This document shows, one piece after another, positions 4,441 through 60,541 of a stretch of DNA of 64,000 nt. The notes below the pieces were generated by a model that saw nothing but the letters and a program-made list of their open reading frames with translations, made no database searches and was not told the DNA's origin. The stretch comes from Eledone cirrhosa (Eukaryota): assembly GCA_964016885.1 (NCBI GenBank), contig OZ024741.1, positions 202,182,001 to 202,246,000 of the forward strand, in the 5' to 3' direction. Position 1 is the first letter of the stretch; each line of letters opens with the position of its first letter. Made by a program: the position numbers and the translations under genes.

Positions 4441-4477
4441 TATATATATATATATATATATTAGTAAATTGAATAGA

Positions 4478-5472
4478 TTTCACCGTATTTTTGACTAAAG
4501 GAATTTTAGCCTGATAATGGGATTTAGAACCCTCAGATAAATGGAAAAAGATGAGTATTGACGTACATGGGAGTTGAACCCACATCTTTGGTTATCGCGA
4601 CCACTGTGCTACCATTACACCAACACATCACCCGTCTCTTTCCATTCAAATTAGAAGCTACATTCTTAGTGAGTTTAAATGGCAAGTAAGTATGTTTTGA
4701 AACAGTGAGCAGGTTTGAAATTAGGAAATAGAATAGCTTTCACCGTATTTTTGACTAAAGGAATTTTAGCCTGATAATGGGGTCTAGAACCCTCGCTAAG
4801 AATGTAGTTTCTAATTTGAATGGAAAGAGATGGGTGATGTGTTGGTGTAATGGTAGCACAGTGGTCGCGATAACCAAAATGTGGGTTCAACTCCCATGTA
4901 CGTCAATACTCATCTTTTTCCATTTATCTGAGGGTTCTAAACCCCATTATCAGGCTAAAATTCCTTTAGTCAAAAATACGGTGAAAGCTATTCTATTTCC
5001 TAATTTCAAACCTGCTCACTGTTTCAAAACACATTTACTTGCCATTTAAACTCACTAAGAATGTAGTTTCTAATTTAAATGGAAAGAGACGGGTGATGTG
5101 TTGGTGTAATGGTAGCACAGTGGTCGCGCTAACCAAAGATGTGGGTGCGACTCCCATGTACGTCAATACTCATCTTTTTCCATTTATCTGAGGGTTCTTA
5201 CTTGATATATATATAAGTATGTTTTGAAACAGTGAGCAGGTTTGAAATTAGAAAATAGCATAGCTTTCACCGTATTTTTGACTAATGGAATTTTAGCCTG
5301 ATAATGGGGTTTAGAACCCTCGGAGAAATGGAAAAAGATGAGTATTGACGTACATGGGAGTCGAACCCACATCTTTGGTTATCGCGGCCACTCTGCTACC
5401 ATTACACCAACACATCACCCATCTCTTTTCATTCAAATTAGAAACTACATTCTTAGCGAGTTTAAATGGCAA
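4478..5472. repeat. 260-bp unit array (forward 4478-4794, inverted 4795-5198, forward 5216-5472) next to (TA)n
   Basis: CACCGTATTTTTGAC recurs at 4481 and 4741, and as reverse complement near 4970-4983. Confidence 0.92.
5095..5165 (+). ncRNA. tRNA-like cloverleaf in the 260-bp unit (other copies 4836-4905 +, 4559-4629 -, 5346-5416 -)
   Basis: Acceptor GATGTGT/GTACGTC; D arm GTGTAATGGTAGCAC; stem TGGT/ACCA with 7-nt loop; consensus T arm GTGGG-TTCRACT-CCCAT (this copy TGCGACT); T5 about 10 nt downstream. No U33, so not a canonical tRNA. Confidence 0.65.
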
Positions 5473-5479
5473 CTTACAA

Positions 5480-6249
5480 TTGAAACGAAGTCATCAGAAG
5501 AACCGATGTATCTCCGATCGTTCTGTCACTCACTCAATGATTTAATTAAGCCAGCATCACTAGGATACTAATCGAAAAGGAAAGCAGAGTGCACACTTAT
5601 ACATTAATAGTGAGAGAAACTATTTTGTGTGGGTAGACAATTTGCTTCTCTGTCCCCAGACCAGGCACTAGTTTCTGTTACCCTGTCCGCTGGCAGCAGT
5701 TCATGTTTGACTGGCGTGTACAGAAATTAGGTAATGTTATTAAACATTACCTAACGGCTAAGAGTACTTTCCTCAGCGGGGAGTTAGCCTTCTTGGAACA
5801 GGTCAAACATTAGCCCAATGCATTTGGTGTGGAATGGCTGTTACAGTAGTCAACGCCTCTACAGTGACAGTGAAAGGACTAAACTAGTATTCCCTATTTT
5901 TGTGGAACATGCTGGTCATTTTTACAAATTGAAAAAAGTAAAGAATGAGCCATGGAAGCACTCGACCAGACATTCAGTATAAAAAACAAAGACAAAATTG
6001 CAAACAATTAATAAAAATCAAACTATAAAACAGTGTAAAATGTTCAACTTACAATTTGTATGTGGGTTACCCTGGGAATTAAAATAATAATATTGAAACA
6101 AAGTCATCAGAAGAACCGATGTATTTCCGATCGTTCTGTTACTCACTCAATGCTTTAATTAAGCCAGCATCACTAGGACATCAACCAAAAAGGAAAGCAG
6201 AGTGCACACTTACACATTAACGTGAGAGAAACGATTTTATGTGGGTAGA
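5480..6249. repeat. About 160-bp direct repeats (5480-5638, 6093-6249) around a ~450-bp unique spacer
   Basis: Both copies run from TTGAAACRAAGTCATCAGAAGAACCGATG to TGTGGGTAGA. Confidence 0.85.
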
Positions 6250-7213
6250 GAATATATTTATATATATGTGTGTATATATATATTTATAAACTTAAGAAAA
6301 TTAACAAAGAAAGGACAAGACAACTAATGGAAACAAAACAAAACAAAAAACAATTTTTTAAGGGAAAACCTTACAAAAAATTATTTAAAAAAATAAAAAT
6401 ACAAACGAAGGACACAGAACTCGATGGTCATTGGTCGTTGAGATGGATTTTGGCAGTTTCAACCCCTACCCCACGGTACAGCTGTTCCACCCGGGATCAC
6501 AGTGTCTGACATAAGCCAAACGCTGTCCAGTGGAGTAAGAGACGAGAGACAAAACATTAATTTATAGCAATTAAGCTACAACTATACATAGAATTTTGTG
6601 TGACATCAGAGAAAAAGTGTGGCGCCTCTTATGGGATGAAAGACATGAATGAATAATAGGCTTCTTCACTGTTTTTGCTTACCAAATCCCACTCACAAGG
6701 TATCATTGAACCCTAGGCAAAATTAGAAGACACTTACTTAAGATGCTATTCCCAGTGGAGTCAAACTAGGATAAGATTGCATACACAGTGTGAGTCTTTG
6801 ACTTTCACAATGTATTCCCATACAAACCATGCCATTATTTAATGTTTTCTATCACCATATCTATACTGAAAATGTAAGTCAATTATAAACAATTGAAACT
6901 AATATAAGAATCAATGATTATAAAATGATTTGACTTATAAACTCATCATTTTTGTGCTAGAAAGAAAAAAGGGCCAATTTCTTCAAGAATATATACACTT
7001 TTCTTTGAGATTCTGGGATTTTGTAATTGTAATTTTCAATAACAATACCCCTATTCTTTTTGTAGCTTGTAAACTAGATTCTTTAATGAAGAATAATTTA
7101 AGATTTATATAAATATAGAATAAAATAAATATTTCTGAGAAATACAAAATAATTTATTAATAAATAAAAATGATTTACATAAAAAGGTCTTGTTAAATGC
7201 TTCCCAGCTGTTG

Positions 7214-15390: not shown

Positions 15391-16343
15391 AGACATGAAA
15401 AATGCGCAAGCTCAAAAGTGCCACAGAATGTTATAATATAAACCTTCAAAAGTGTGGGACTAGAGTTGTTGCTAAAAAATATTGTAATCATTATATATCG
15501 TACATTCTGTGGCATCCTTTATAAAAATAGCTTAAACCAACGAAGCCTTTATTTTTACGCTATTTCACTTAGTTAATTCTTAGAGTGTAACATATAAAAA
15601 TATGATTTACAACTATAAAATAAATTAATTAATATAGTAACAGAGCTGCGGAGCTGAAATTTAGGAAATAATGGAGTATCGGATCCTGAGTTGGAGCCAG
15701 TCAATTTTTGGCCGACTCCGCAGCCCTGTATAATACATTTCATATTAAAGTTATTAATAAACCTATTTTACACTTCATGCAAATTACCACGAGATATTGA
15801 TATTAGATATAAGATACAGCGCAATATCTACAGCTGTAAAAGTACGAAAGCGAAGTAATAATAAGTGGCTTAAGGTAATTCCAATATGAAAGTTTGTAGT
15901 GATAAAAATTTGGTAATGCAATACGATTGTTAATATTATAGTTCTATGAAAATGTAACAATAGATAACTAAATTATTTTACTATTAGTATATTTATAAAA
16001 TTATCATTATAGATTTGATCGTTCATATAAGCATCATATTAAGTTTCAACACAATTATTTTGTTACTATGAGTATATGATAATAATATTACGTAATTATT
16101 TATAGCTGTTATTACATTAAACATAGATGTATTTATTTTTATATGTTACACTCTAAGAATTAACTAAGTGAAATAGCGTAAAAATAAAGGCTTCGTTGGT
16201 TTAAGCTATTTTTATAAAGGATGCCACAGAATGTACGATATATAATGATTACAATATTTTTTAGCAACAACTCTAGTCCCACACTTTTGAAGGTTTATTA
16301 TAACATTCTGTGGCACTTTTGAGCTTGCGCATTTTTCATGTCT
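15391..16343. mobile_element. Foldback-type MITE with ~210-bp near-perfect TIRs (about 15391-15602 / 16134-16343)
   Basis: AGACATGAAAAATGCGCAAGCTC... is reverse-complemented at ...GAGCTTGCGCATTTTTCATGTCT. Confidence 0.85.
15641..15728. mobile_element. 88-bp hAT-like mini-MITE nested in the foldback element
   Basis: CAGAGCTGCGGAG...CTCCGCAGCCCTG ends; imperfect 8-bp flanks TATAGTAA/TATAATAC. Confidence 0.55.
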
Positions 16344-26849: not shown

Positions 26850-29800
26850 TACCATGCGACCCTCAGTTCCTACCTCACAATTTCCCTCCCCCCCACCCCC
26901 ACACACCACCATAGTCTATTCGACCAATCAAACCTAGCATGCCATTTCCACTGCTGCTGCTGCTACTACCTGCCTAACTAACTCTCTCCTCCTCTGGCGC
27001 ATCCCAACACACCCTGCCATTACCCCACCACCACTGTCCTTCTAGCCCTCAATTTTCCCACCGTTATGGATGGATGAGCTGGGAATACACGAGCAACTCT
27101 GAATCAATAGATGAAATATGAATCTGCGAGCTACCAAGCACCCACGTGAAGCGCCAACCCAGAGACCCTCCCCTACGAGTGTCGACAAATGCCCAAAACT
27201 CCGAGTTGGTACCATCAATGTAGGCTCAATGAAAGGAAGAGCAGGAGAAATCGTAGAAATGCTAGAGCGAAAGGAAGTTGATGTATGCTGTGTGCAAGAG
27301 ACTAGATGGAGAGGAGGGTCTGCTAGAGTCCTTGTAGGAAAAAGCCAGTGCTACAAATTTTTCTGGGTGGGAAATGACGATGGGATGGGTGGTGTAGGTA
27401 TACTATTAGCTGACAAGTGGGTAGATAAAGTAATCTCAGTGTACAGGGTAAATGCAAGAATCATTAAACTCAGACTAGTCCTGAATAAGACAATTACCAC
27501 AATAATTTCAACTTACGCACCCCAATCGGGGCTGCCAGACGAACTTAAGGATAGGTTTTACGAGTCCCTAATACACACTACTGCTCTAACAGACGACAAG
27601 GACTTCCTAATCATTGCAGGAGATTTTAACGGACACGTAGGTAAACACTGCGATGGCTTCAATAGAGTACATGGAGGCCATGGAGTTGGTACAAGGAATG
27701 AGGAAGGATTCAGACTTCTAGAATTCTGCGACGCCAATGACATGTCGATATGTAACACAAACTTTAAAAAACCCGACAACCACCTGATCACCTATAGATC
27801 AGGGGAGCACTCTAGTCAGTTAGATTTTATCCTCATCAGAGGACGTGACAGATGGACGGTCGTAAACACAAAAGCCTTCCCTAGTGAGGAATGTACATCC
27901 CAACATAGCTTAGTTGTCAGCGACCTCACGGTCAGAACTAGACGAGCCCTGAAACAGAGGCCAACCTGGAGAAGAAAGATCTGGAAGCTGAAAGTCCCCT
28001 CAACCAGTAACAGATTTAAAGATATTTTACTCAACGCCTACGACAGTAAAGAAGAACAGATAGAGACATTTAACGTAGAAGAGAACTGGGAGTTCCTAAA
28101 AAATAACTTACTAGAGGCGACGGATGAGATTTGTGGCTGGAGTAAGACCTCAAGCAGGAGGAGAGTGACTTGGTGGTGGAACAATAAGGTAGATGAAGCA
28201 GTCAAGGCCAAGAGACAGGCATGGAAAGAATGGAAGAACGGGGGGAGCAGGGTACATTACATAGAGACCAAGAGGGAAGCTAGGCGACAAGTATACTTAG
28301 CTAGGAGGGAAGCAGAGGATAGAAAATTCAAGCATGTTTTACAACGTGAGGACCAGAAACAGGAGGTATTCAAGATTGCGAGGCAGTGTGTCAGAGATAG
28401 TTGTGATGTCATTGGAGAGAAGTGTATCCGGAATGATAAAGGTGAGCTTGCCCTCACAAGTGCTGAGAAGAAAGATGCATGGAAGAGTCATTATGATAGA
28501 TTACTAAATGAGGAGAATGCATGGGAAGAAGAGACCCTACCCCACGTAGACCCTATAGAGGGACCAGCAGTACAAGTCAGCGGCAGCGTAGTAAGTAAGG
28601 CAATCAGAGATATGAAGATAGGGAAGGCAACCGGTCCATCGGGTATAGCTGCCGAGATGCTGAAGGCATCTGGGTCTGTAGGTCACACTATAACCACACG
28701 TATCGTTAACCAGGTAATACTAGAGGGGGCCATACCAAAAGATTGGTGCAGTAGCATCATTGTCAACTGCTACAAAGGTAAAGGCGATGCACTAGATAGA
28801 GGAAACTATAGAGGTATAAAGTTGATGGACCAGGTCATGAAAGTAACAGAAAGAGTTATAGCACAGCTGATTAGGGACCGGGTGAATATAGACGAGATGC
28901 AATTTGGGTTTGTACCAGGGAAAGGCACCACTGATGCGCTCTTCCTTGTGAGGCAATTACAGGAAAAGTACCTAGCTAAAAGTAAGCCACTCTACTTGGC
29001 ATTTGTCGACCTTGAGAAAGCCTTTGACAGAGTTCCACGTGCAGTAATCTGGTGGGCTCTTAGAAAACTAGGAGTAGATGAATGGCTTGTGAAAGCGGTA
29101 CAAGCCATGTATAGGGGAGCAGTCAGCAAAGTTAGGATTGGCAATGAGTATAGCGAGGAATTTAGCGTACAGGTTGGGGTCCACCAGGGCTCTGTTCTTA
29201 GCCCTCTCCTGTTCATCATAGTCCTGCAGGCAATAACGGAGGAGTTTAAGACCGGATGCCCATGGGAACTCCTGTATGCTGATGACCTCGCACTCATAGC
29301 TGAATCTATGGTAGAACTAGAGAATAAATTCCAAACCTGGAAGCAGGGACTAGAGAGAAAGGGCCTCAAAGTCAACATGACAAAGACTAAGGTCCTTATA
29401 AGTAGACGAGAAAACAGAACCCAGATCCCCTCAGGGAAATGGCCTTGCTCAGTATGTAGGAAAGGTGTAGGTAGGAACTCCATTCTTTGCCCCAAATGCA
29501 AACAATGGGTACACAAGAGATGTAGCGGGATCTCAGGAAGCTTAATTAAGAATGTAGGATTCACATGCAGCAGCTGTGCTGAAACAGCAAGCAAACAGCC
29601 ACAGGAAACAAGTACCACCAATCTCTGGGAGGGCCCTGTAGAAACAGTAGACAGCTTCTGCTACCTAGGTGACCGAATTAGCAACGGAGGTGGGTGCTCA
29701 GAAAGTACAATAACTAGGGTAAGAACGGGATGGAAGAAGTTTAGGGAACTACTACCACTGCTAGCTGCAAAAGGCTTCTCCCTCAGAATGAAAGGCAGAC

Positions 29801-30542
29801 TGTATGATGCGTGTATCCGAACAGCGATGTTGCATGGTAGTGAGACCTGGGCGCTGAAGGTGGAAGACTTACGTAGATTAGAGAGAAACGAAGCCTGCAT
29901 GCTCCGATGGATGTGTAACAGTAATATACGTGAACGACAAAGCATAAATGAATTGAGAGAGAGACTGAGCATAAGAGGAATCAAATGCTGCGTGCAGGAG
30001 AGGCGGTTACGCTGGTATGGACATGTGATGCGTATGAAGGATGACAGCTGCATAAAAAGGTGCAGAGCACTAGAAGTTGATGGAAACCGCGGAGTGGGGA
30101 GACCCAAGATGACTTGGGATGAGGTGATAAAAGCCGACCTTACCCAACTACACCTCTCAAAGTCAATGACACACGACCGTGACTTCTGGCGTCACGCAGT
30201 AATACAGGGTACCCGACCTCCCATGGGTACATGCTGAAGCATATAAACAATATGCCCCCCCCCCACCCCACCGCAAGGTGGTCGTGGAGGTGCCACGGCA
30301 AAAAAGCACCCAGCCCACACTGTAAAGTGGACGTGTAGGCGCCACGAAAAAGCACCCAGCACTCACTGTAAATGAGGTTGGTGTTAGGAAGGGCATCCAG
30401 CTGTAGAAATCAAGCCAGATCAGTTCCTGTATGAGCAAGGCATGGTCAGCCGACCAGACACTGCCCACAACAGGACAACCCGTCTAACCCATGCTAGCGT
30501 GGAAGAACGGACGTAAAACGGTGATGATGATGATGATGATGA
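26850..30542 (+). mobile_element. Full-length RTE-clade LINE (5' boundary approximate)
   Basis: C-rich 5' UTR, single long ORF, ~290-bp 3' UTR, (GAT)n tail; no TSD resolved. Confidence 0.92.
27118..30237 (+). CDS. RTE polyprotein: APE endonuclease + reverse transcriptase + PHD-like zinc finger (1039 aa, uninterrupted)
   Basis: VGTINV, CVQET, GDFN, SQLD, SQH (APE); QGSVLSP, YADD, YLG (RT); CSVC-CPKC-HKRC-CSSC. Confidence 0.95.
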   Translation: MNLRATKHPREAPTQRPSPTSVDKCPKLRVGTINVGSMKGRAGEIVEMLERKEVDVCCVQETRWRGGSARVLVGKSQCYKFFWVGNDDGMGGVGILLADKWVDKVISVYRVNARIIKLRLVLNKTITTIISTYAPQSGLPDELKDRFYESLIHTTALTDDKDFLIIAGDFNGHVGKHCDGFNRVHGGHGVGTRNEEGFRLLEFCDANDMSICNTNFKKPDNHLITYRSGEHSSQLDFILIRGRDRWTVVNTKAFPSEECTSQHSLVVSDLTVRTRRALKQRPTWRRKIWKLKVPSTSNRFKDILLNAYDSKEEQIETFNVEENWEFLKNNLLEATDEICGWSKTSSRRRVTWWWNNKVDEAVKAKRQAWKEWKNGGSRVHYIETKREARRQVYLARREAEDRKFKHVLQREDQKQEVFKIARQCVRDSCDVIGEKCIRNDKGELALTSAEKKDAWKSHYDRLLNEENAWEEETLPHVDPIEGPAVQVSGSVVSKAIRDMKIGKATGPSGIAAEMLKASGSVGHTITTRIVNQVILEGAIPKDWCSSIIVNCYKGKGDALDRGNYRGIKLMDQVMKVTERVIAQLIRDRVNIDEMQFGFVPGKGTTDALFLVRQLQEKYLAKSKPLYLAFVDLEKAFDRVPRAVIWWALRKLGVDEWLVKAVQAMYRGAVSKVRIGNEYSEEFSVQVGVHQGSVLSPLLFIIVLQAITEEFKTGCPWELLYADDLALIAESMVELENKFQTWKQGLERKGLKVNMTKTKVLISRRENRTQIPSGKWPCSVCRKGVGRNSILCPKCKQWVHKRCSGISGSLIKNVGFTCSSCAETASKQPQETSTTNLWEGPVETVDSFCYLGDRISNGGGCSESTITRVRTGWKKFRELLPLLAAKGFSLRMKGRLYDACIRTAMLHGSETWALKVEDLRRLERNEACMLRWMCNSNIRERQSINELRERLSIRGIKCCVQERRLRWYGHVMRMKDDSCIKRCRALEVDGNRGVGRPKMTWDEVIKADLTQLHLSKSMTHDRDFWRHAVIQGTRPPMGTC

Positions 30543-30975: not shown

Positions 30976-31567
30976 CTTAAGCCGCAAGGATATAAGGAAG
31001 AAAGAATGGAGTGAGATGTCAAGATGACGAAAGATAGAGACATGATATATGTATGATTCAAACAAGAGCATGAGAACTAGGGCAGGGCTCATGTATGAGG
31101 ATTCCTACAAGGTTCTATGAATTCAAATATAATGAAATGAAATGTTGAATTAAAAGACAGCTAGTACACAAGTTTGAGGGTTTCCTACCAGATTCATTGA
31201 ATAAATAAATTATTACTTAGAACTAAATATAGTTAGAAATAACAATGAAAATAGGTTATTACCAGAGGAAAATTTTTAGATATTCACATACTGTTTGCAA
31301 CATAAGTAACAGCTAGTTGGAAAAGAATCAAGTGGAGAGTGAGAGGGGTTCTATTTTTTTCATATATGATATAGGGAGGTAGAGAGAGGGTGTCTAAAAC
31401 ATACATGGAAAGCCTGACATGCTCCCCAATATACTGTCAATATTTTGTTAAGATGAGAACTTTTTAGTGTTGTTTCTGTAGGTATGTGAAACAGATTTCA
31501 CTATACTGAAAAATTTGTTATATTGTACTTATTATAACTGAGAGTTTAACCTCTTGAGTGAGTATAT

Positions 31568-32507
31568 ATGAATGTATGTATAGTATATTTGCCAATATAC
31601 TGTATGTTTAATTAAAAACATTTAGAAGACCATACGTTATCAGCTTTAAAGTAGTGACTATGTCACTTACTTCTTTTCGGCAAAAGATGAGAGAGAAGCT
31701 GACAGTCTATTTGAAGCTGGTTGGCGTTCATCAGAGCTACAGACTCCCCTGCTTCTGCCGAAAATTATAGAAGCTGGATTCTTATAGAATTCCAGTAATA
31801 ATCAGGAGCTGATTATACAGTACAATTGCCGGTCCAACAAAAATTAGGTATTAGGATTGGTGCTCTGAAATAGCGATGTATACATGAATGTATGTATAGT
31901 ATATTTGGCAATATACCGTATGTTTAATTAAAAACATTTAGAAGACCATACACTATCATTTTTAAAGTAGTGACTATGTCACTTACTTCTTTTTGGCGAA
32001 AGAAGGGAGAGAAGCTGACAGTCTGTTTCAAGCTGATTGGCGTTCATCAGAGCTACAGACTCCCCTGCTTCTGCCGAAAATTATAGAAGCTGGATTCTTA
32101 TAGAATTCCAGTAATAATCAGGAGCTGATTATACAGTACAATTGCCGGTCCAGCAAAAGTTAGGTATTAGGATTGGTGCTCTGAAATAGCGATGTATACA
32201 TGAATGTATGTATAGTATATTTGGCAATATACCGTCAGCTCCTGATTATTACTGGAATTCTAATAAGAATCCAGCTTCTATAATTTTCGGCGGAAGCAGG
32301 GGAGTGCGTGGCTCTGATGGACACCAACCAGCATGAAACAGACTGTCAGCTTCTCTCCCTTCTTTCACCGAAAAGAAGTGACATAATCACTACTTTAAAA
32401 CTGATAGCGTATGGTCTTCTAAATGTTTTTAATTAAACATACGGTATATTACCAAATATACTATACATACATGTATACATCGCTATTTCAGAGCACCAAT
32501 CCTAATA
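31568..32507. repeat. 316-bp tandem array (starts 31568, 31884, 32200) plus inverted copy 32235-32507; retrozyme-like
   Basis: ATGAATGTATGTATAG at exact 316-bp spacing; TA-rich flanks; hammerhead motif in each complete copy. Confidence 0.9.
32005..32065 (-). ncRNA. Type I hammerhead ribozyme, intact core
   Basis: GGGGAGUCUGU-AGCU-CUGAUGA-ACGCCAAUCAGCUU-GAAA-CAGACUGUC/AGCU-UCUCUCCC; predicted cut between 32017 and 32016. Confidence 0.8.
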
Positions 32508-32544
32508 CACAATATATATATATAAGGAAACAACACAATTCTCA

Positions 32545-37734: not shown

Positions 37735-40345
37735 ACATAGATACTAAAAATAGACTGGAAATAAAGTACAAAACTAGGAGGAAAAAGCTAAATATTATCA
37801 TAGAGGAACTGAAGCAACGCATTGTAGCAAAGAGAGCAAAAATTAGGCAATACGAGAGCAGAGTCAGTCAGTAAAGACAGAACGGCATGTTTGACAACAA
37901 CCAGAAGATGCTGTTTGGACAGCTTGAAGGGAAAGAAAGAGGCAACGACTTGATCCCTGAGGCGGAACAAACTAGGACATTCTGGAAAGGAATATGGGAG
38001 CAGGATGTTAAACATAATGACCAGGCAGTGTGGATTGAGACAGTACAAAAGGAGATTAGTGAACAGGCACACCAACAAACTGATTTGAGTATCACAGTTG
38101 AAACTCTTAAGGGGCAGGCCAAAAAGCTAACCAACTGGACATCACCAGGCCCAGATGGTGTGCAGGGGTATTGGATTAAAAATATAACATCCCTCCACCC
38201 GAAACTGACAACCATGTTCAATGACTGCTTGATGTCAGGTGAGGTACCAGAGTGGTTGACAAAAGGTACCACAGTTCTGGTAATGAAAGACCGAATCAAG
38301 GGTAATGATGTTACCAACTATAGACCTATCACATGTCTGTCCATAATGTGGAAACTGTTGACAAGGATTATGTCTGAGGAAATCTACCATCACCTCCACA
38401 CAAACAACTTGTTACCGGACGAACCGAAAGGATGCCGAAAGAAGTCCCGTGGCACAAAGGACCAGTTACTTATTGATAAGATGGTAATGAGGAATTGCAA
38501 GAGGAGACACACTAGTCTTGCCATGGGATGGATAGACTACAAAAAGGCATTTGACATGGTGCCTCATTCTTGGATCACCAAAAGTCTAGAGATCTTCAAG
38601 GTGGCAGATAACATCAGACAGTTGTTGGGCAAAAGTATGAAGTCCTGGAAAACAGAGTTAACATCAGCTGGAGAATCCTTGGGAGGCGTGAAGATCAAGA
38701 GAGGTATCTTCCAGGGAGATAGTCTGTCCCCTCTGTTGTTTGTCCTTGCTCTGATGCCCCTGACCATTATACTGCGAAAAGTGAGAGCAGCATACAAGTT
38801 GGGAAAGAGAGAGCTTACCATCAATCACTTCCTCTTCATGGACGATCTTAAGCTCTTCGGGAAGAGCGAGAAGGAGTTGGATGTGCTTGTTGACACTGAC
38901 CGTATTTTCAGCAATGATATATGTATGCAATTTGGTATTAGTAAGTGTGGAGTCCTTGTGGTGAAGAGGGGTAAATTGAGCAGAAGCAACGGAATCCAGG
39001 TACCAACGGGTGAGATGATAAAGGAAATTGACACTGAAGAAGGATACAAGTATTTGGGTGTTCTGGATGACATCAAGAACAAAAAAATGAAGGAATTGAT
39101 AAGATCTGAATACATTCGGAGAGTAAGGAGCGTATTAAAGTCACATCTGAACAGTAGGAATGCCATAAGTGCAGTAAATTCCCGAGCTGTGTCTATTATT
39201 AGGTACAGTGCGGGAATTCTGAGATGGAATGTTGCTGAACAAAAAGAAATGGATAGGAAGACTAGGAAGCTATTGACTATCTACAACATGTTCCACAAGA
39301 GGAATGATGTCGATAGACTCTACTTAAGGAGATCTGAAGGTGGAAGAGGTCTTATCAGCATAGAGGACTGTGTTCAGATGGAGAAAAACAACCTACACAA
39401 ATACGTGACTGATAGTAAGGAGCCAATGCTCAGAATTGTACTGAAGGAGAGGACAATAGACCAGGGGATGTCCAAGGAGGAAATAACAACAAGGAGAAAG
39501 AGCAGCCTTCATGAAAAATCCCTTCATAGTACCTTCTTTGAGAAAACTGAATTCAGAGATCCACAGACATGGAACTGGTTGAAAAGAGGAGACCTTAAAA
39601 AGGCTACAGAAGGAATGCTAAAGGCTGCGCAAGAGCAGGCCCTCAAAACGAAGTGGTTGAAACACCATATTTACAAGGAGGAGGCTAGCCCACTGTGCAG
39701 GATCTGTGGAGAGAGAGAGGAGACTGTGGCTCACATTGTATCCGAGTGTAAACACCTAGCCCAGACTCACTATAAAAGCTGGAGACATGATGTGATGGGC
39801 AGGGTGATCCACTGGCACCTATGCAAAGTAAACAATTTACCACATTCTGAGAAGTGGTATGAGCATAAGCCAGAGTCGGTGATAGAAAACGATCAGGTGA
39901 AGGTGCTGTGGGATTTTAGGATACAGACGGACAAGAAACTGGAACACAATAGACCTGACCTGGTGGTTGTGGACAAGGAAAAAAGATTGCGCCTGATTGT
40001 GGATGTGGCCTGCCCATTCGACATGAGAGTGCAAGAGAAGGAAAGGGAGAAAATTAACCGATACCAGGACTTAAAGTGGGAGGTAAAAAGGATTTGGAAC
40101 TGCCATGAAGTCAAAGTGGTCCTGATTGTCATAGGCGCACTAGGTACTATCTCAAAAAGTTTTCAGGGATGGTTAAAGAAAATTGACCCCGCTACGCTTT
40201 TTGGAACGCTTCAAAAGGCATGCTTGCTGGGAACAGCAAGAACCCTCCGATACATCCTGAATATCTGAGGCTGCAGGTAGTGGCTTGATATTCATTTCAA
40301 CAAACTTTCCAGTTAAATAACATCAATGACTGAGACTCAAAGAAC
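37735..40345 (+). mobile_element. 5'-truncated R4/Dong-type non-LTR retrotransposon between (TAA)n tracts
   Basis: ORF 37887-40268: RT (QGDSLSP, FMDD), CRICG...H...C knuckle, RHD, NRPD...D restriction-like endonuclease. Confidence 0.93.
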
Positions 40346-41152: not shown

Positions 41153-41597
41153 CATAATGGTAGTAATAATAATAATTACTTTATCGTTATTAATAATAAT
41201 GATGGAGATAATTATAATAATGATTACAACGCTAACATACCTACTACGTCTACTAACACCCGATGTGTTCTTATACCGCCAAGTATTCTTAAAGAATAAG
41301 CATAACATGAATGTGTAACCTTACTTTGCTCTCGTATGAATTGGACTTTCCCTTCAGCAACATCTTCAAGGGCAATCATTTTTCTCTGATGAGTCTTATA
41401 AGTGCATCTCTGCTATAGTATATATACACACATATATGTTTACCTGTTGTATTATAAATATACTTATAAATGTGGTTGGCATAGAAACCAAGCCAGAACC
41501 AGTTCCGTATGAGCAAGACATGGTCACTTGATCTGACTTGTCTCACAACGGGACAACTTGTCTAGCCAATGTTAGCATTATCTTATTTCTCATTCTT

Positions 41598-41633
41598 TCT
41601 TCTGATGAAGGAGTAGTGTCCGAAACGTTAAGA
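41598..41633 (+). ncRNA. Minimal type I hammerhead (Penelope pLTR type)
   Basis: UCUU-CUGAUGA-AGGAGUAGUGUCC-GAAA-CGUU/AAGA; stem I UCUU:AAGA, palindromic stem III. Confidence 0.75.
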
Positions 41634-41719
41634 CCCTCTTCCTGCTATTTCAAGCGTTAACTTAATATATTCCTTCCATATACTGTACCGATTGTTGCCT
41701 CCGTCTCTGATTCTTCTGT

Positions 41720-42600
41720 CGCTTTTCTAGATATTTCTCTATCTATTAATCACTCTCACCACACCCTCTCTACTTCCATCTTTATTAAACCAACAGACTC
41801 CCAATCTTACCTCGACTTCACCTCCTCCCATCCAACCCACACCAAACACTCCATACCCTATTCCCAATTCCTCCGTCTTTGTCAATTCTGTAGCCAGGAC
41901 GACGATTTCGAAATCCATTCCCTTCACATGACTTCCTGCTTCATCCAGCGTGGATATCCCCCACCCTGATCCAAGCTGTTCTCACCCACGCCCGTGAAAC
42001 AGACCACACCACAGCCTTCTCACATCACCCCCCCCCAACACCTGTGTTCCTTTCCCCCTCACCTACCACTCCAGCGACATATCCTCCATTCCTTCCATAT
42101 CCTCTCTTCTGACCCCATCACTTCTCGCTTTTTTCCAAACCCACCCATTACTGCTTTTAAGCGCGCCCGCAACCTCTCAAATTCCTGGTTCGCAGTTCCT
42201 TTTCATCCTCTCCCACGACTCCACCCGGCTCTCAACTTTGTTCCCGTTCCCACTGCAACACTTGTCCCTTTATTTCCACCCTCACCTAACGAGTCTTTCC
42301 GTATCTGCCATTCCTTCACCTGCACATCCACCCACGTTGTCTATGCCCTCTGGTCTTCCCTTTGCGGGTCTTTATATATCGGACAAACAGGACGCCGTAT
42401 GGCGGACCGTTTTGCCGAACATTTGAGGCATATACACCTTGGTTTGGATACTCCTGTCGCCAGTCATTTCTGTTCTCCTGGTCATTCTTCCCTACATGTT
42501 TCAGTTCTGGGTGACCTTTTACATCATGGATCACAGGCCTCACGCACCAGGACTGAACAAAGTCTGATTCACCGCCTTGTGTCCTATTCCACCAACCCAC
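41720..42600 (+). mobile_element. Penelope-like element fragment (RT C-terminus + GIY-YIG, Neptune-like), frameshifted
   Basis: FLDISL...KPTDSQSYLDFTSSHP..SIPYSQFLRL...RGYP; VVYAL..LCGSLYIGQTGRR..DRFAEH. Confidence 0.9.
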
Positions 42601-45034
42601 CCTCCCATACAACCCCATGAGGACAGGCTGAAGTAAATGCATCCACTGAAGCCCCCAACCCACACTGTAAAGTGGTCGTGTAGGTGTCACGACAAAAAGC
42701 AACCAATCCACACAGTAAAGAGGTCGTGTAGGCATCACGACAAAAGGCACCCAGTACTCACAGTAAAATTAAACAGAAAACATGAGTGGAATAGCAACAT
42801 CACAACTAGTAATTACAGACGAAAAAAAAAAAATCAAAGACATACAGACACACACAAAAACAACATGTTGTAGGACAGAACAAAGAAGAGATACAAAATA
42901 AAAACCCAGTCACTGAGGAGGTTAGAGAATTTGTGATGAAAGAGCTTTGACAATATATAAACATCCGGTTATCGAACCAACCAACCAACCGGAAATTTAT
43001 AATAAATTGAAGTGAAAACCAACAGATGCATGTGTTTTTATTGGCAACATGACCCTCCCTAAGTATAACAAAGTATTATATATATATATATACATACACA
43101 CACATGTAGACTTATCATCATAAGCAACTAGATACTGAATATAAAGCATTAGTTTACATGGCCAGAACACACATTTTGAGAACACACAAAAGAACCAGAT
43201 CTTATGTAATGACTAGACCCAATAGTATACTAGCCACCATGTAATGAAAATGATCCTATCCTAAAGGGTTAACTCCCAAACCACTTTAGAAAATATTTCC
43301 CTTCTAAATTACAGGCAGTATGGCTTCCACAAAGACAAAGCCTAAAAAGATCTACTCTATGTCATACTGATTTCTTTCTATTCAACATTCCACTAACAAC
43401 TATGTTGTTGCCATTGATATCAATAGATACCAATGGCAACAACACTAACTGAGACTAACTTATTGTTAACTTAGGAGTAATTCAAATTGAACTATTTCAT
43501 TGCCATATTACTAATGAAATACACTGCCAATGATTTTCAATTCATTTTGAAATAATAAATAATTTGGAAGGATTTAGTAATACAACTAACTTTTTCATTA
43601 TTAACTTGGGATTTGAAGTAGGTATCACAGCAGCACTCTGAAAAGGGTCGACAAGCACAATTTCACGACACAAAAATCCACTTTTTGCTTGATTATTTCC
43701 ATGTCAAATCCTTTTTTCCATGATATATAATTATATATCATTTGAAAGTTCTGGATGTGAACTTTCTTCTCATATACTTTTGATCAAAATCCAACACTTA
43801 CATACCATGCCAGATCCCCTCTATGACCCTCATATTTCCCACACATTTACAATGTTTGTCCCATTTTTGTTTTTGACTGCTGAACAGTAACGCTAGTTCT
43901 TTTCAATTGACTGGAGCACTATAACTTGATTTGTGTTGGAAATGATACAATCATGAAGAGGACTTTTTAAATTTATTTTGATATAAAAAAATCAACTGGG
44001 GTAGGTCAGATGATTGTTATGAAATATAAAAGTGAAATTTTTATCCCATGCAGGGAGAGCTGAAACGTAACACGAATCTAGGGCTTCAAATATCGAGTTT
44101 GAGCCAGAATTTCAAGAAATGGACAAATTAATTAAGTAACCATATATTTCTACGAAAAAATGCACTAAATTGAGCTACATAAGTCATGGAATTGTTGTAT
44201 TGAAAATATTGTTTATTCCCTCTCACTATTTTAACATGTGGAGAGCGAGGTTAGAATTTACATTTTTCTTTGAGAAATATTGTTTAAATTTTGCCAATAA
44301 AAATAATATAGGCGCACTGCTGTTTTTCTGATTTAGTGTGAGGACCAAGAACACCAGAGGTCTCGACATTGACTGGTATGAAATGGAAGTGGTCGGACAA
44401 GCCCCAGTATTTATCTTCCTGTCCCCTGCATTGTGGACACTGGTGTTCAGGTTTGCATATTAAATTATGAAGTAATTTCAGCACCTCCCATAATACTTGC
44501 CTGCCCACTTGACATTCCCTGGTACTGCATCCTTTCTACAAAAGAACAATACACAATTCAAAACATTCACTTCACACACTAAATCTAATAATTCTCCAAC
44601 ATTTTTAGGAACAGCAAATTCCCCAAAGAGATAAAATTCAACTTAACATTTTTGATACCAACTCACCTGAAACTGTCCCTGGTTTTATGATACAAACTGC
44701 CCATTTTAAAATGTCCATACTTATATTTAAAACCCTCCAGAATAATTTTATGTAATAAATTTTTGTTTATTAATACTCTAAATATGAGCTTGCTTATGAA
44801 AAAGTTATGATTTTATTAAATTCCTCAAAATCTTTATTTTAAAAATTAATTGAAACATATATTCAGTGTATTTCATTAGAAAGTTTCCACTATAGTCAAA
44901 AACTACAAACAGCTGCTATCACTTAAAATAAATACATTTCGCATTAGAATAGTGCTTACATGTCTGAAATGTTTCTCTTATCACAACACCATCACACACT
45001 CATGAGAATTTAAAAACCGCACCCTCTAAACATA

Positions 45035-54125: not shown

Positions 54126-56199
54126 TAGATATACAGATAGTTACGAGAATTCGTCTGCTGCATTATCAAATTATCAATTAATGTGTACGGTGTTTTTTAG
54201 TAGTTTTTTTTTTCTTAATAATTACGAGAATTCGTCTGCTACATTATCAATTTAAGTGCATGGAATTTTTTTTTTTTTTTTTTTGACAGATCAGCTCCTC
54301 TTTTAACACGAACATCCAGCAGAAAATCAAAGAGATCAGAGACAATAACAAAATCAATTAATGATCTCTGTCTTTGATTCCCCTTATACCATGTATATTT
54401 ATGGATGTCTCTGTGCTAGAAGGTTTTCATTATAGAGATTCCATTGCTAGAACAGAAGTTTAATAAGGCCTCTCCATTCGTATGTTGATCGGGGTCGCTA
54501 TTCCTGCCAATCACTCCTTTCCATCTTAGGTGGTCAGTGCCAACATGCATTAAAGTTTCTTATCAGTATATATGATTCAGTATTTACATCTAACGCTGCA
54601 GTGACTTCATCAAGGAAGGACCTGTATTCGGACTCCTTGTTTTGTGCATAAACTAGCACCACCCACAGAGACCTATCTTTCAACCTTAGCTTCAAGAGGC
54701 AAATCTTCCCTCATAATGGGATCCAGTTCATAAGACATTCTGACAGTTGAGGGCTTGTGAGTATCTCCACTCCCACCTGTGCAGTCATTTCTGGTACCAC
54801 GCCTGAATAGTGGAGTTTCTATTCTCCATCAAAATCTACAGTATTAGAGTCACGGAACTTTGTTGAGAAAACCCTGACTATATCTAGCCGGTAGCATCTA
54901 CCCACCTCCACTAGTTCTTGCTCCTTACATGTAAGGGTTGTGATGTTCCTGGTTCCAATTGTCAAAGTTTGCTCCTGTAGCGACGTGGTTAGTCAGTCTA
55001 GTCACTACTTCTGATCAGATCCGGGAATAGCCCTTAGAAGGACTGATCAGATCTGAAGATAGCCCTTAAAAGGACTGTTGTTGCATATAGCCCTTAAAAG
55101 AACTGTTGAGGATGGACAGACGAAAGCACAAGTTGAAAGGACGAAGCAAGGCGAGATGTAAATTCGATCAGCTATTTATTTTCACATGAAGCGACGATAC
55201 GAGGTACAAGGCGTGTGTGAGTGACGAAGCGTGGCAGAGGCGAGGAACAACGATACGCGAGTTGACTCTGCCAAATGTCGACTGCTGAAGTGTTTGGAAC
55301 CACTCTATTTATACAGAAATAATCGTTTGATGTTTAGCCGGTGTGTAGGCGTTTATTCTGGTAGCTTTTAAGGATTCTTTTGTTTCACGTTGAGGTAGCT
55401 AGCTAACAGGTAGATGGCGCTGTATATTTCACAGATGTTATTTTCGGTGGCTGTACAAGAGTCCCCTGCCAGATCTTTTGTACAACAAAAGAGCGAATTA
55501 TCGTATAGTAATGGGCCAGTGGTGCATTTGTCATGACAATAGCCCCAGGAGTGTCCAGCACGTTGTGAAATTTTGCGATCATCGAGTACAGGACAGAGTC
55601 GATGTAGAGATGATATGGCAAGATGTGTGTGTCAGGAAGAGAAAAAAGAAATAAACTATAAAATGATGAATGAGCCTGTTGCAATTTAGGTTGAGCTGCC
55701 TGTGAATTGCGTGACAAAAAGTCTAACTGGGCAGTGAAGATAACCGTAATGTGTGAACTGAATGGCCGTAAGCATGCTGCCTAAAAGTAACAGTTTGCTC
55801 CACAGCATATGACTTGAGCGAATGCATGTGGTAAAAAAAATAGAGTGAATGTGTACGTGAAAAAAGAAGGCCAGTGTTTTGAGGCTGCAATTTGTGAAAT
55901 GCGTGATCAAAGAGAAAACATTTTGTAGTGTAAGAGTTAGAGGGACACAAATATCTATTGCTCAGTGTATGAACTAAAGGGTGAAACAAACGTGGTTTTG
56001 TAGTGTGCATGAAAAACAGGATATGTACACGCCTTGTATGTATATAAAAATTATGGCAATTACACAATCAATGTTACAGAACAAGAAAAATATAATTTTT
56101 TGCAAAACAAGAGAGTGAAGAAAAAAAAATGTTATACTCAATGATATACACAATGTTTGTTCTTAAATAGAGTTTGTAATAAATAATGTTCATTATAAA

Positions 56200-56747: not shown

Positions 56748-59720
56748 TTACCATCTAGATCGAGAATAAAATATTTCGGATATTTTTTTTAGAACACGAT
56801 AAGGGCCAGAATATGGAGGTCGAAGATGAGCTGAGATGGTGTCGTTTCGAACGAAAACGTGTGTCCAATCTTTAATGTCTGAAGGTACGTGTGTGGCCGT
56901 GTTCTGTTGACGGATGCTTGCAGGAGCAAGGTGAGACACATATTGTCGAAGACGGTGTACGTATGATCCTGGGTCTGGAACATCCTGAGGAGAGATGGGA
57001 GCAACCATCTGACCAGGTAGAACCAGGGTGGTGCCGTACACTAATTCTGCAGGTGTGTGTCCGAATTCCTCCTTAACGGTGGATCGAATGCCCAGAAGGA
57101 TGAGTGATAGGTATTCAAACCAGTGTGTCTTGTCTGGATATGCTTTTATTGCAGCTTTCAATTGGCGATGGAATCTTTCCACGAGACCATTAGCTTGCGG
57201 GTGATAAGCTGTCGTGCGGATGTGTTTACATCCTAACAAGCGAGTCAGTTCCCTGAAGAGGTGGGAGTCAAATTGGCGTTCTCTTTCCGTTGTTATCTTC
57301 GCTGGGGCGCCATAACGTGATACCCAGTGTAAAATCAAAGTTTTAGCGACTGTTTCCGCTGAGGTATCATTTATGGGAAAAGCCTCAGTCCAACGAGAAA
57401 ATCGATCTATGCAGGTGAGCAAGTGTGTGTAGTTCTGTGATGGTGGTAGCGGTCCGACGATGTCGATATGCACATGATGAAAACGTGCATCAGGTTGCGC
57501 GAATGTGCCGAGTGGAGTTTTGATGTGTCTGTGGACTTTGGCTTTCTGGCAGGCAATGCAGCTCCTGGACCAGTCGCGCACGTCCTTGTTAATGTTAGTC
57601 CACACAAAACGAGCAGAGATGAGTTTCTGTGTAGTCCGGATTCCCGAGTGAGACAAGCAGTGTAAAGCAGAAAAAACTTGTCGACGATGCATCTGTGGTA
57701 TGTACGGTCGTTCATGACCGGTAGAAAGGTCGCACCAAATTTGTCCCGGGGAAGAAGGAATGGGAACTTGCTGAAACTTGAGGGATGGCGAATCTCGGAG
57801 CTTGATAAACTCTTCGTCAGTCTCTTGGTCAGCTGCGATCTGTTGAAGGTCGATGCCTGAATGCACATGTATTGCGTTCAGCTGGATTCGGGACAGGGCG
57901 TCAGCTGCTACGTTGTCTGATCCTTTGATATGCCGAATATCAGTTGAATATTGGGAGACAAAATCCAGGTGTCGGAGTTCTCTCGGTGAATGTCGATCAG
58001 GTTTGGTACAGAACGCATAAACTAGTGGTTTATGGTCCGTGTAGATCACGAAATCTGATCCTTCGAGCATGTGCCGAAAATGCTTAACCGAAAGATAGGT
58101 TGCCAAAAGTTCGCGGCCAAAGGTACCGTATTTCGTTTCTGCCGGTTGCAACCGCTTAGAAAAGAAGGATAAGGGTTGCCACACGCCATCGACATGTTGT
58201 TGTAGAACGCCTCCAACCCCCGTGTCTGATGCGTCAACTAGCAGCGAAAGAGGAGCGCCAGACCTGGGGAAAACGAGCATGGAAGCGTTTGCCAACATTT
58301 CCTTCAGGCGGTTAAAAGATGTTAATTCTTCCGCGTTTAGAGTGATCTCTTTGCGAGTCCGGTTACGAAGAAGGTCCGTGAGGAGTCTGGCTGCGTCGGA
58401 ACAATGAGGGATGAACCGCCTATAAAAATTCACCAGACAGAGGAATTCACGCAGTTTCCGAAGTGATGTTGGTGCGGGAAAACTGCGGATAGCTTCTACT
58501 TTCTCGGGAAGTGAACGAATGCCGTCTTTATCGATGATGTGTCCGAGAAAGGACAGTGAAGGGACGCCGAGAAGGCACTTGCTGGGGTTGATGATGATAC
58601 CGTACTCAGCCAAACGTTAGAAAAGGAGATCTAAGTGCTTCTCGTGTTCATGCTCGGAAGTACTTGCTACCAGCACGTCGTCAATATACGCGTATACGAA
58701 GGGTAGATCGCGTAACACGGTGTCAATAAACCGCGGAAAAGTTTGTGCAGCGTTGCGCAGACCGTACGGCATTCGCAGGAATTCGAATTAAACCGAACGG
58801 TGTTGTGATTGCGGTCTTCGGAATGTCTGCAGGCTCCATAGGTATCTGGTTATATGCACGCACCAAATCTACCTTGGAAAAGATGCGTGCGCCTTGCAGA
58901 GAGGCAGAAAAATCGTGCAGGTGAGGTACAGGGTAATTATCGGGCACTGTAGAATTGTTAAGTGCACGATAATCCCCACATGGTCGCCAATCATTCTCGG
59001 TTTTTTTTTTGGAACAAGGTGTAGGGGTGCAGACCAGTTGCTGGAGGAAGGGCGAATGATTCCGAGGTCCAGCATGTGTTGGAACTCCTGCTTGGCGATT
59101 CTCAATCGATCTGGAGGCAGTCTCCTTGGTCGGACAGCTGTGGGTGGTCTCTTTGTCTCGATGTGGTGCGTGACACTATGCTTAATAGGACCATCCTTAA
59201 ATACCGGGCGAGTGATGTCTGGGTATTTCTGGAGAATGCCGTTGTACCACGAAGGCTCTGACTGGCAAATTACAGGGCCCACTGTGGATTGCGTGGTAAA
59301 TGTACCTCTCACAGTGAGGTTTGTGGTGGTGTCAATAAGCCTCCGGTTCTTCATATCCACCAGAAGGTTGAAGTGGTGGAGAAAATCGGCTCCTAGGATC
59401 GGGGTCGGCAGGTCTGCCACGACAAACACCCATTGAAAACGCCGCCTCAGGCCTAAATTGAGGGTCAGAGACTTCTCCCCGAAAGTCGGAATTGACGATT
59501 GGTTCACTGCCTGCAGAAAGGACGGGGTTGGGTGTCTTTTACCCGAGATTAGTGAAACAGGAATAACACTAACCTGGGCTCCTGTATGCACGAGGTAACG
59601 GATGCCTGTCGCCTGGTCGTTAATAAAAAATAGACGACTTTTCTTTTCAGTACCAGGGGTGAACGTCGTCGCTAGGCCCTGGTCTGCCCGTTTCCCTGGG
59701 TGGTATTCTGGAAAGAGCAC
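56748..59720 (-). pseudogene. pol: Gypsy pol (PR-RT-RH-IN) with frameshifts and a stop
   Basis: LVHTGA (catalytic D replaced by H), YIDD near 58680, DAS, TDH, HHCC, NGLVER, GPY; broken between about 58610 and 59010. Confidence 0.9.
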
Positions 59721-60541
59721 GGGGCCCTACACTTAGATGCCCGAACGCCGAATTCTTCGTGATACCAGCAGAGGTTGCCAGACACACGATTTTGACTGGG
59801 ACTTCTCGATCTTTGACGGTGAAAGGGTCTGGACCGACTGTTGCTGCGCCGCCGGTGTGTTTGCAAGGTCAGGCTTTCTAATTGGTTTGAGATGGCTTTG
59901 ATTTGACCAGCCTGTTCTCTGATCATAGCCCGCAGCTCTGAAATCTCGGAGGTAGAGTCCGAGGACGCTACGAAAGGGTTCGTCCGACGATCTACCTGTG
60001 CTACTGAGGCAAAAGGGTTTGATACCTCAGCGATCTTATCTGCGACACTCGCCAGTTCCTCTGGGGTTGCTGACTCGTTAGTCGACGCCAGAATGCCCTG
60101 CATCGATAAGGGCAAGCGCTGTATAAACAACCGTTTCAGCAGATCTTCTGAAAGCGGCTGGTCCTCCATCGGCTGTCTCATCTTTCGTAATAGTTGGGAC
60201 GGTTTTCTGTCCCCCAATTCTTCTGCAGACACGAGTTGGTTCAGTCGTCTCTGCTGTGACGCGGTCGTCCGCTTGACCAATTCCTTGCGGAATGATTCAT
60301 ATGACACCGTGCCCGGCGGTGCCATGACGAGGTCCCTCACCTCAGCCAAGACTTCTGGCGGGACAGACCCAATGATGTAGGTGAGCTTTGCGGAATCGCT
60401 CTTAATTCTGTTCGCGGTGAATTGCGCTTCTATGTGAGCGAACCACAGAGTCGGGTCGTTGGACCAAAATACGGGGACTTTCAATGTTAACGCCGCTTGT
60501 GAGGTTGGTATCTCGGCCTCTGTCGTTTGTGACATGTCCAT
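59672..60541 (-). CDS. gag: Gypsy Gag with CHCC motif
   Basis: PVFWSNDPTLWFAHIEAQF; LGDRKPSQLL; CWYH-x9-C-x3-C. Confidence 0.9.
   Translation of the reverse strand: MDMSQTTEAEIPTSQAALTLKVPVFWSNDPTLWFAHIEAQFTANRIKSDSAKLTYIIGSVPPEVLAEVRDLVMAPPGTVSYESFRKELVKRTTASQQRRLNQLVSAEELGDRKPSQLLRKMRQPMEDQPLSEDLLKRLFIQRLPLSMQGILASTNESATPEELASVADKIAEVSNPFASVAQVDRRTNPFVASSDSTSEISELRAMIREQAGQIKAISNQLESLTLQTHRRRSNSRSRPFHRQRSRSPSQNRVSGNLCWYHEEFGVRASKCRAPCSFQNTTQGNGQTRA

Follow-up and report, generated by a model that had tools for sequence, protein, structure and literature searches.

A hammerhead-free 260-bp repeat with an internal tRNA-like module in Eledone cirrhosa is probably a passenger of Penelope-like elements

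Several described systems come close to the repeat reported here. Non-LTR retrozymes are, in the available text of the reports on them, defined by a type I hammerhead ribozyme (PMC7229834; PMC4209133; 10.64898/2026.07.22.740005). They are described as non-coding units of 150-450 bp with a GC content below 50%, which lie in short tandem arrays and are proposed to depend on Penelope-like elements, or PLEs (PMC7229834; 10.64898/2026.07.22.740005). PLEs themselves are reported to form partial tandems and an inverted 5'-truncated copy, to use (TA)n targets and to carry a tail of 30-40 bp at either end. Within this group non-autonomous PLEs such as Chlamys MRC1 and those of the Naiad/Chlamys clades are described with head-to-tail and inverted insertions, microsatellite targets, a 30-40-bp tail and no canonical hammerhead (PMC8557442). 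In vitro, according to the available text, a PLE protein nicks AT-rich DNA and begins reverse transcription within the RNA, at two sites between which the tail lies; hammerhead mutants still insert, and PLE cleavage is dispensable in that assay (PMC11167929). Sequences derived from Pol III genes are described in other mobile repeats as well. Sm-alpha of Schistosoma, a high-copy short repeat with a tRNA-Gln-derived module, has been called SINE-like as well as satellite DNA (PMC2770079). The TRIMp3 elements Cassandra, Helenus and Ajax are non-autonomous retroelements with an internal Pol III gene-derived sequence that is read as a promoter; for Cassandra this role has been demonstrated, for Helenus it has been argued (PMC10886601). 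Finally, octopus genomes contain the SINEs OK, OR1 and OR2, and numerous unclassified SINEs and PLE families are listed in the available part of the paper on O. vulgaris repeats.

The 260-bp unit from Eledone cirrhosa shares the above features with non-LTR retrozymes but has a tRNA-like domain in the slot of the hammerhead; the word 'tRNA' is absent from the available text of the retrozyme preprint of Li, Clavereau and Pollet 2026 (10.64898/2026.07.22.740005). Compared by description, it resembles Sm-alpha in its tRNA-derived module, shortness and copy number. However, Sm-alpha has a hammerhead as well, whereas the 260-bp unit has the tRNA alone, together with a 19-bp helix and a T5 run. The insertion pattern of the Chlamys MRC1-type PLEs is similar. 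These match the 3' sequence of an autonomous family, whereas for the 260-bp unit a comparison with one decayed PLE remnant gave no significant match, and a tRNA module is unmentioned for them in the available text (PMC8557442). In contrast to the TRIMp3 elements, which are of LTR type with PBS, PPT, fixed ends and a 5-bp TSD (PMC10886601), the ends of the 260-bp unit are permuted and PLE-like. The octopus SINEs, again compared by description, are similar in their A and B boxes, length and copy number, whereas in the 260-bp unit the tRNA is no 5' head, the copies are tandem and inverted, and a LINE tail is lacking. Among titles and abstract openings we found none that describes a PLE passenger with a tRNA and no hammerhead; Repbase, Dfam and most subscription papers lay outside this scope, and the family may already bear another label in Repbase or Dfam, e.g., as an octopus SINE.

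The window, i.e., the whole stretch of DNA that was analyzed, comprises 64,000 nucleotides of contig OZ024741.1 (assembly GCA_964016885.1, positions 202,182,001 to 202,246,000). It consists of repeat-rich animal DNA in which LINE frames, of the RTE type and others, occur together with an LTR element and numerous microsatellites, and its repeats are presumably of the octopus type. At 4460-5472 a unit of 259-260 bp (non-coding, tandem, GC about 38%) was found in three segments, between which the strand is switched twice (Table 1). Each segment is 95-98% identical to the 259-bp monomer in the alignment. Segments A and B are joined head-to-head at 4792-4795, segments B and C tail-to-tail across the TA run, and the 5' end of segment C is fused to an unrelated partial tandem, D. 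A TA tract abuts the 3' end, in the sense of the tRNA, in all three local segments; target-site duplications are unreadable inside such tracts. Mapping on the monomer thus bears out the permuted partial copies with two orientation flips beside (TA)n that had been noted in a preliminary description. Only its start of the array, at 4478, had to be moved, as the alignment of segment A reaches 4460.

Table 1. Positions of the tRNA-bearing array, its parts and related features in the window.
Feature	Position	Strand	Remarks
(TA)n tract	4441..4461		abuts 3' end of segment A; putative insertion target (from sequence and alignment end)
Segment A	4460..4794	-	1.29 units; monomer 139->213; 3' end is inner tail boundary
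tRNA-like domain on 19-bp leader/trailer helix (copy A)	4538..4648	-	predicted fold
T5 run	4545..4549	-	in 3' strand of the 19-bp helix; counterparts at 4915-4919, 5175-5179, 5332-5336
tRNA-like copy 1	4559..4629	-	A and B boxes; Rfam 41.1 bits
AC-rich putative tail, 33 nt	4687..4719	-	between the two 3' ends of the array; also 5005-5037 (+), 5214-5246 (-)
Segment B	4792..5198	+	1.57 units; monomer 1->147; then 6 nt equal to monomer 245-250, then TA
tRNA-like copy 2	4836..4905	+	Rfam 35.4 bits; 1-nt deletion
tRNA-like copy 3	5095..5165	+	Rfam 37.5 bits
TA run	5205..5215		between 3' ends of segments B and C
Segment C	5472..5214	-	1.00 unit; monomer 248->246; 3' end is outer tail boundary
tRNA-like copy 4	5346..5416	-	Rfam 30.1 bits
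Partial tandem D	5473..6253		613-bp period; TA-rich tract at 6254; unrelated to tRNA unit (77 and 47 of 200 shuffles)
Hammerhead retrozyme array	31562..32508		316-bp unit; tandem and inverted; 30-nt tail at 32479-32508
Decayed Penelope-like remnant	41590..42620	+	hammerhead-like motif near 41600, followed by a frame that has RT-thumb-like and GIY-YIG regions and a stop

A true retrozyme of the same layout lies 27 kb away from the tRNA array. The likeness to this hammerhead array, first noted for position 31568, was confirmed: it is built of tandem and inverted segments, running from 32235 to 31562 (2.13 units) and from 32235 to 32508 (0.89 unit), and ends at (TA)n. A full core is kept by one copy only, whose hammerhead, minimal and of type I, is located on the minus strand at 32050 and sits, as read from the sequence, on a long helix. 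In the tRNA array itself the exact motif CUGANGA is absent from both strands of 4460-5472, the 14 Rfam matches with E<=10 include no ribozyme family, and a hammerhead descriptor scan which recovered the core at 32050 found nothing in 4460-5472. All three scans therefore agree with the earlier claim that the unit has no hammerhead core. Rfam matches to miRNA families were rejected, as they are below their own cut-offs and reflect the inverted repeat. Since a type I hammerhead is part of each non-LTR retrozyme unit and the 260-bp unit has none, it does not fall under the definition of a retrozyme and is instead a variant of this kind.

To follow the family beyond this locus, one monomer was mapped at 80% likeness to four sequencing runs (X1, X4, X7 and X9). 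The unit or part of it occurs in eight runs from four studies, none of which is on record as RNA; X6 to X8 hold small shares of the unit, and of these the counts cover X7. X9 is a RAD library with the same species label from a separate study, whereas X1 may be the window's own sample. Carriers of the unit are 3,237 contigs in X1 and 2,796 reads in X9, as well as eight contigs in X4 and five in X7, the latter two under other organism labels, which do not prove the carrier. Exact-pattern scans of metagenome and viral contigs gave 0 matches. An estimate of about 10^4 copies from summed over single-contig depth was discarded, as this ratio is no copy number. The depth profile of the unit is 5'-poor, and some contigs belong to subfamilies in which the stretch from 4660 to 4735-4749 is a different spacer, of 103 rather than 74 nt.

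The following statements refer to what was listed, namely 40 of 75 rows for variants, 15 of 42 for joints and 22 of 314 for loose ends. The tandem joint 4794->4535 is present in X1 (five contigs), X4 (one contig) and X9 (229 reads with 60 starts). Among the listed joints at least six connect opposite strands, at six different places, five of them supported by one contig each. At least two of the listed loose ends are flanked by TA, at 4733 (11 contigs of X1) and 4683 (X4), and both lie on the sense 3' side. A fold-back at 4565/4569 recurs in X1 and X9 and appears as a loose end in X4; it is centered on a 4-nt palindrome at the boundary of T stem and acceptor, and may reflect stalling of the reverse transcriptase in the structured domain. 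A single locus, a fixed-register satellite or a tRNA-gene cluster, which the preliminary description had set against its own reading, are excluded or unlikely in view of the many contigs, the tandem joints and the inversions in varying registers.

The unit was said to hold a tRNA-like module with A and B boxes in each copy, and four matches to the Rfam tRNA model were indeed obtained, at 30-41 bits with a cut-off of 29 bits; ARAGORN calls a tRNA in two of these four copies. In copy A the module is predicted to sit on a 19-bp helix of its leader and trailer, with three G.U pairs and one private mismatch, and a 3-nt bulge separates this helix from the acceptor stem. Against shuffles, the fold of the 111-nt domain 4538..4648 has a z of -2.9 in sense and -1.8 in antisense, while the cloverleaf folding of the isolated 71-mer is no better than that of shuffles (z -0.02). 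The T5 run is the sole run of four or more T on the sense strand of the unit and follows 13 nt past the tRNA, upstream of the tail. It had been taken for a terminator; the run is there, but it belongs to the 3' strand of the acceptor-extending 19-bp helix, which had been overlooked. That such runs are scarce was considered as an indication of Pol III read-through and rejected, as the scarcity is not significant (1 observed versus 1.8 expected, P 0.39). The 19-bp inverted repeat was likewise rejected as a MITE terminus, as copies do not end there.

Conservation within the module is uneven. The A and B boxes are intact, the B box being canonical in 98% of the X1 depth and in 956 of 1,113 X9 reads, whereas the anticodon loop is variable. 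The reported loop CGCGAUA without U33 is correct for 4460-5472 but private to this locus, since most of the family has U33 (79% of the X1 depth, 631 of 993 X9 reads); G34 is found in 95% of the X1 depth and in 825 of 993 X9 reads. The copies at 4460-5472 have U at position 37 and a 27-43 mismatch. As the loop differs among local copies and family variants, the combination of U33, a purine at 37 and intact stems that marks an array of functional tRNAs is not found. Judged from its unconserved anticodon loop and U37, the module of this locus is no decoding tRNA. At place 4593, subfamilies occur whose anticodon loop differs and whose anticodon stem is paired throughout. Variants at the acceptor end that break the pairs 1-72/2-71 amount to about 19-34% of the X9 reads (unphased), which counts against strict conservation of the cloverleaf. 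In the helix at least six variants are found among those listed; pairing is kept or restored in four of them, while the other two disrupt terminal pairs, and none lies in the 3' strand.

The insertion ends suggest a further element. On the monomer, 3' ends lie at 213 (segment A), 246-247 (segment C) and 250 (an X4 contig), and the last 6 nt of segment B match 245-250, which gives two 3' ends 33-37 nt apart. The AC-rich stretch between them, the putative tail, is defined by these four 3' ends and by read boundaries of the RAD library; other ends are at monomer positions 147 and 200. Among the X9 molecules, 4722 is the end of 241, whose flanks are mixed (agreement 0.36), and 4719 that of 103. 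X1 and X9 both show a drop in depth at 4679-4687; this gradient is confounded, as the reference copy has variants of its own and some subfamilies differ in their spacer at 4660-4735. The hammerhead array also has two ends, 30 nt apart, and both tails are delimited by insertion ends only.

Between the tail of the tRNA unit and that of the hammerhead array the best stretch is 17 nt long with 13 of 17 positions identical and four A/G differences. Its plain score is reached by 340 of 8,248 real 30-mers and 61 of 3,000 shuffles (p about 0.02-0.04), and a transition-neutral score, which was chosen after the match was known, by 29 of 8,248 and 10 of 3,000, respectively. When the tRNA-unit tail was compared with one decayed PLE remnant, 1,109 and 263 of 6,856 controls reached the score, i.e., the match is not significant. 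The hammerhead-array tail has a 9-mer in common with this remnant; here 54 of 6,856 controls reach the plain and 439 the transition-neutral score. The tail motif is a concrete candidate for a cis element recognized by the PLE reverse transcriptase. The 9-mer of the hammerhead-array tail also occurs at 15391-16343, where arms of 212 bp, 99% complementary, enclose an AT-rich middle of 530 bp; this, however, resembles a MITE whose terminal inverted repeats are long.

Taken together, the unit shows a partial tandem plus an inverted 5'-truncated copy, a 3' bias to (TA)n and, from few ends, an optional tail. These PLE-type features make it likely that it is a real, multi-copy unit mobilized by PLEs. 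The claim of a retroposed unit at many loci with Penelope-type signatures is thus upheld by the contig and read counts, the joints and the TA flanks, to which the PLE-type tail was added. The reading that we favor, and consider rather probable as a whole, is that of a non-autonomous PLE passenger in which the tRNA-like module probably acts as an internal Pol III promoter. The decayed PLE in the window shows that Penelope-type machinery has been in the genome. Judged by its motifs, this remnant looks Neptune-like; its GIY-YIG region was matched with E 0.0054, below the cut-off (GIY-YIG clusters at 0.95), and Pfam returned nothing for the whole frame or the upstream piece.

For such a passenger, an RNA longer than the unit would arise from tandem copies, either by Pol III running past T5 or by Pol II transcribing across the array. 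The PLE protein would bind the AC-rich tail and nick a TA tract, and reverse transcription would be primed inside the RNA at either tail boundary (monomer 213 or 246-250). Copying would halt at a variable 5' point, and second-strand priming or fold-back could produce the head-to-head inversion, and further copies would enter TA tracts already used, building up the A-B-C-D cluster. Since this scheme works without cleavage of the RNA, the tRNA does not have to take over the chemistry of the ribozyme. This weakens the premise of the preliminary description that the tRNA stands in for the hammerhead, the more so as PLE priming is internal and hammerhead mutants insert in vitro in the available account (PMC11167929).

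By analogy with Helenus, Cassandra and Sm-alpha the tRNA-like module most likely supplies a Pol III promoter, and a B box that is 98% canonical next to a variable anticodon loop was counted in favor of this role. A simple Pol III model is weakened because T5 lies upstream of the tail where insertions end. Segments A and B need an RNA that spans at least two T5 runs, and therefore read-through or Pol II transcription is required. Human Pol III is reported, in the available text, to show no T5 read-through in vitro and some in cells (PMC3141230). A passenger with a tRNA and Penelope signatures would be the PLE counterpart of what SINEs are for LINEs and Cassandra and Helenus for LTR elements. 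As retrozymes are defined and searched by their hammerhead, relatives that lack a ribozyme escape such searches and are classified as SINEs, satellites or tRNA pseudogenes. The genome also offers a natural test of the role of the hammerhead in PLEs and retrozymes, since it contains one unit with a hammerhead and one with a tRNA that agree in layout and resemble each other in their tails.

The foremost alternative keeps the PLE passenger but adds RNA processing at the tRNA mimic in place of the hammerhead: multimers would be cleaved to unit length by a tRNA nuclease, such as RNase P and/or Z, and their ends would be kept close by the 19-bp helix for ligation to a 260-nt circle. The unit would then be a 'tRNA-zyme', a retrozyme scaffold whose hammerhead is swapped for a tRNA mimic, cut by host enzymes and retroposed as a circle by PLEs. 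We regard both the processing and this origin as unlikely, although several observations point that way. The tRNA and the hammerhead occupy the same slot, each atop a long helix, and the rest of the two units is collinear, if marginally so: globally, 15 of 1,000 shuffles and 20 of 2,044 real pieces reach the score, and in a first test of whole-unit homology 10 of 200 shuffles did. However, with three local scoring schemes 58-119 of 1,000 shuffles were as good, and homology to the 316-bp hammerhead unit is a lead only.

The 19-bp helix pairs better on the sense strand, and the pairing is kept or restored by the four of six listed variants mentioned above. As its outer 7 bp lie beyond T5, they would require a longer RNA to form. 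Pairing of leader and trailer is tolerated by RNase P provided that the junction is interrupted; a literature search found no paper on this. The length of segment C deviates from one unit by no more than 3 nt, which would fit one round of copying on a circle (n=1), and the circular fold has a z of -3.6. On the other side, the helix variants listed include no two-sided compensatory change, the acceptor pairs 1-72/2-71 are broken in the X9 reads noted above, no insertion ends lie at tRNA +1 or +73, and cleavage is dispensable for PLEs in vitro in the available description (PMC11167929). If true, the tRNA-zyme would represent a recurrent class of circular mobile RNAs without a ribozyme that has so far gone undescribed.

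That the unit is an ordinary tRNA-derived SINE mobilized by LINEs, whose few local tandem and inverted copies came about by events at the DNA level, is quite improbable. A SINE would account for the A and B boxes, the short length, the high copy number (at least 100 copies were found), the 3' end at simple repeats and the 5'-poor depth, and the window is rich in LINEs, RTE elements among them. SINEs are defined, in the available text, as non-tandem with a 5' head (PMC3531059, PMC4758252). The 260-bp unit, however, has tandem joints in three runs (X1, X4 and X9) and lacks a 5' tRNA head: the module starts at monomer 45 while segments start at 139, 1 and 248, so that none begins at the tRNA, and the permuted starts contradict a SINE. 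T5 also follows directly after the tRNA head. No 3' end in common with the two window LINEs was detected (148 of 200 shuffles reach the score for the RTE element and 86 of 200 for the other), in line with the earlier statement that the tRNA is internal and without a LINE tail. More broadly, none of nine comparisons of the tRNA unit with D, the two LINE 3' regions, a SINE and the PLE remnant was significant.

A satellite or tRNA (pseudo)gene array spread at the DNA level by unequal crossing-over or in a rolling-circle/Helitron-type manner, with TA as fragile sites, would agree with the common tandem joints and with inverted repeats from fold-back repair, but is just as improbable, as the three local 3' ends and the two TA flanks among the loose ends listed are all on the sense 3' side, two preferred ends are at the spacing of a PLE tail, the arrays are short and in many registers, and the anticodon loop is unconserved with U at 37 in this locus.

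Besides the PLE passenger favored here, the window contains further repeats. Partial tandem D has a direct repeat of 163 bp at 91% and is joined to the 5' end of segment C with a 3-nt overlap; it carries CTGATGA on the minus and a GAAAC..GTC motif on the plus strand without a complete hammerhead, and is possibly another PLE passenger. At 42913-43096 (+) a hammerhead-like motif is followed about 150 nt downstream by (TA)n, probably a terminal remnant of a PLE. An open RTE-type LINE frame of 1,040 aa with endonuclease, RT and a PHD-finger match extends over 27115-30237 (+), and a 797-aa RT frame of another non-LTR element over 37875-40268 (+). A frame-broken Ty3/Gypsy-like element is located at 56748-60553 (-) between direct repeats of about 500 bp (54976-55457 and 60601-61100).
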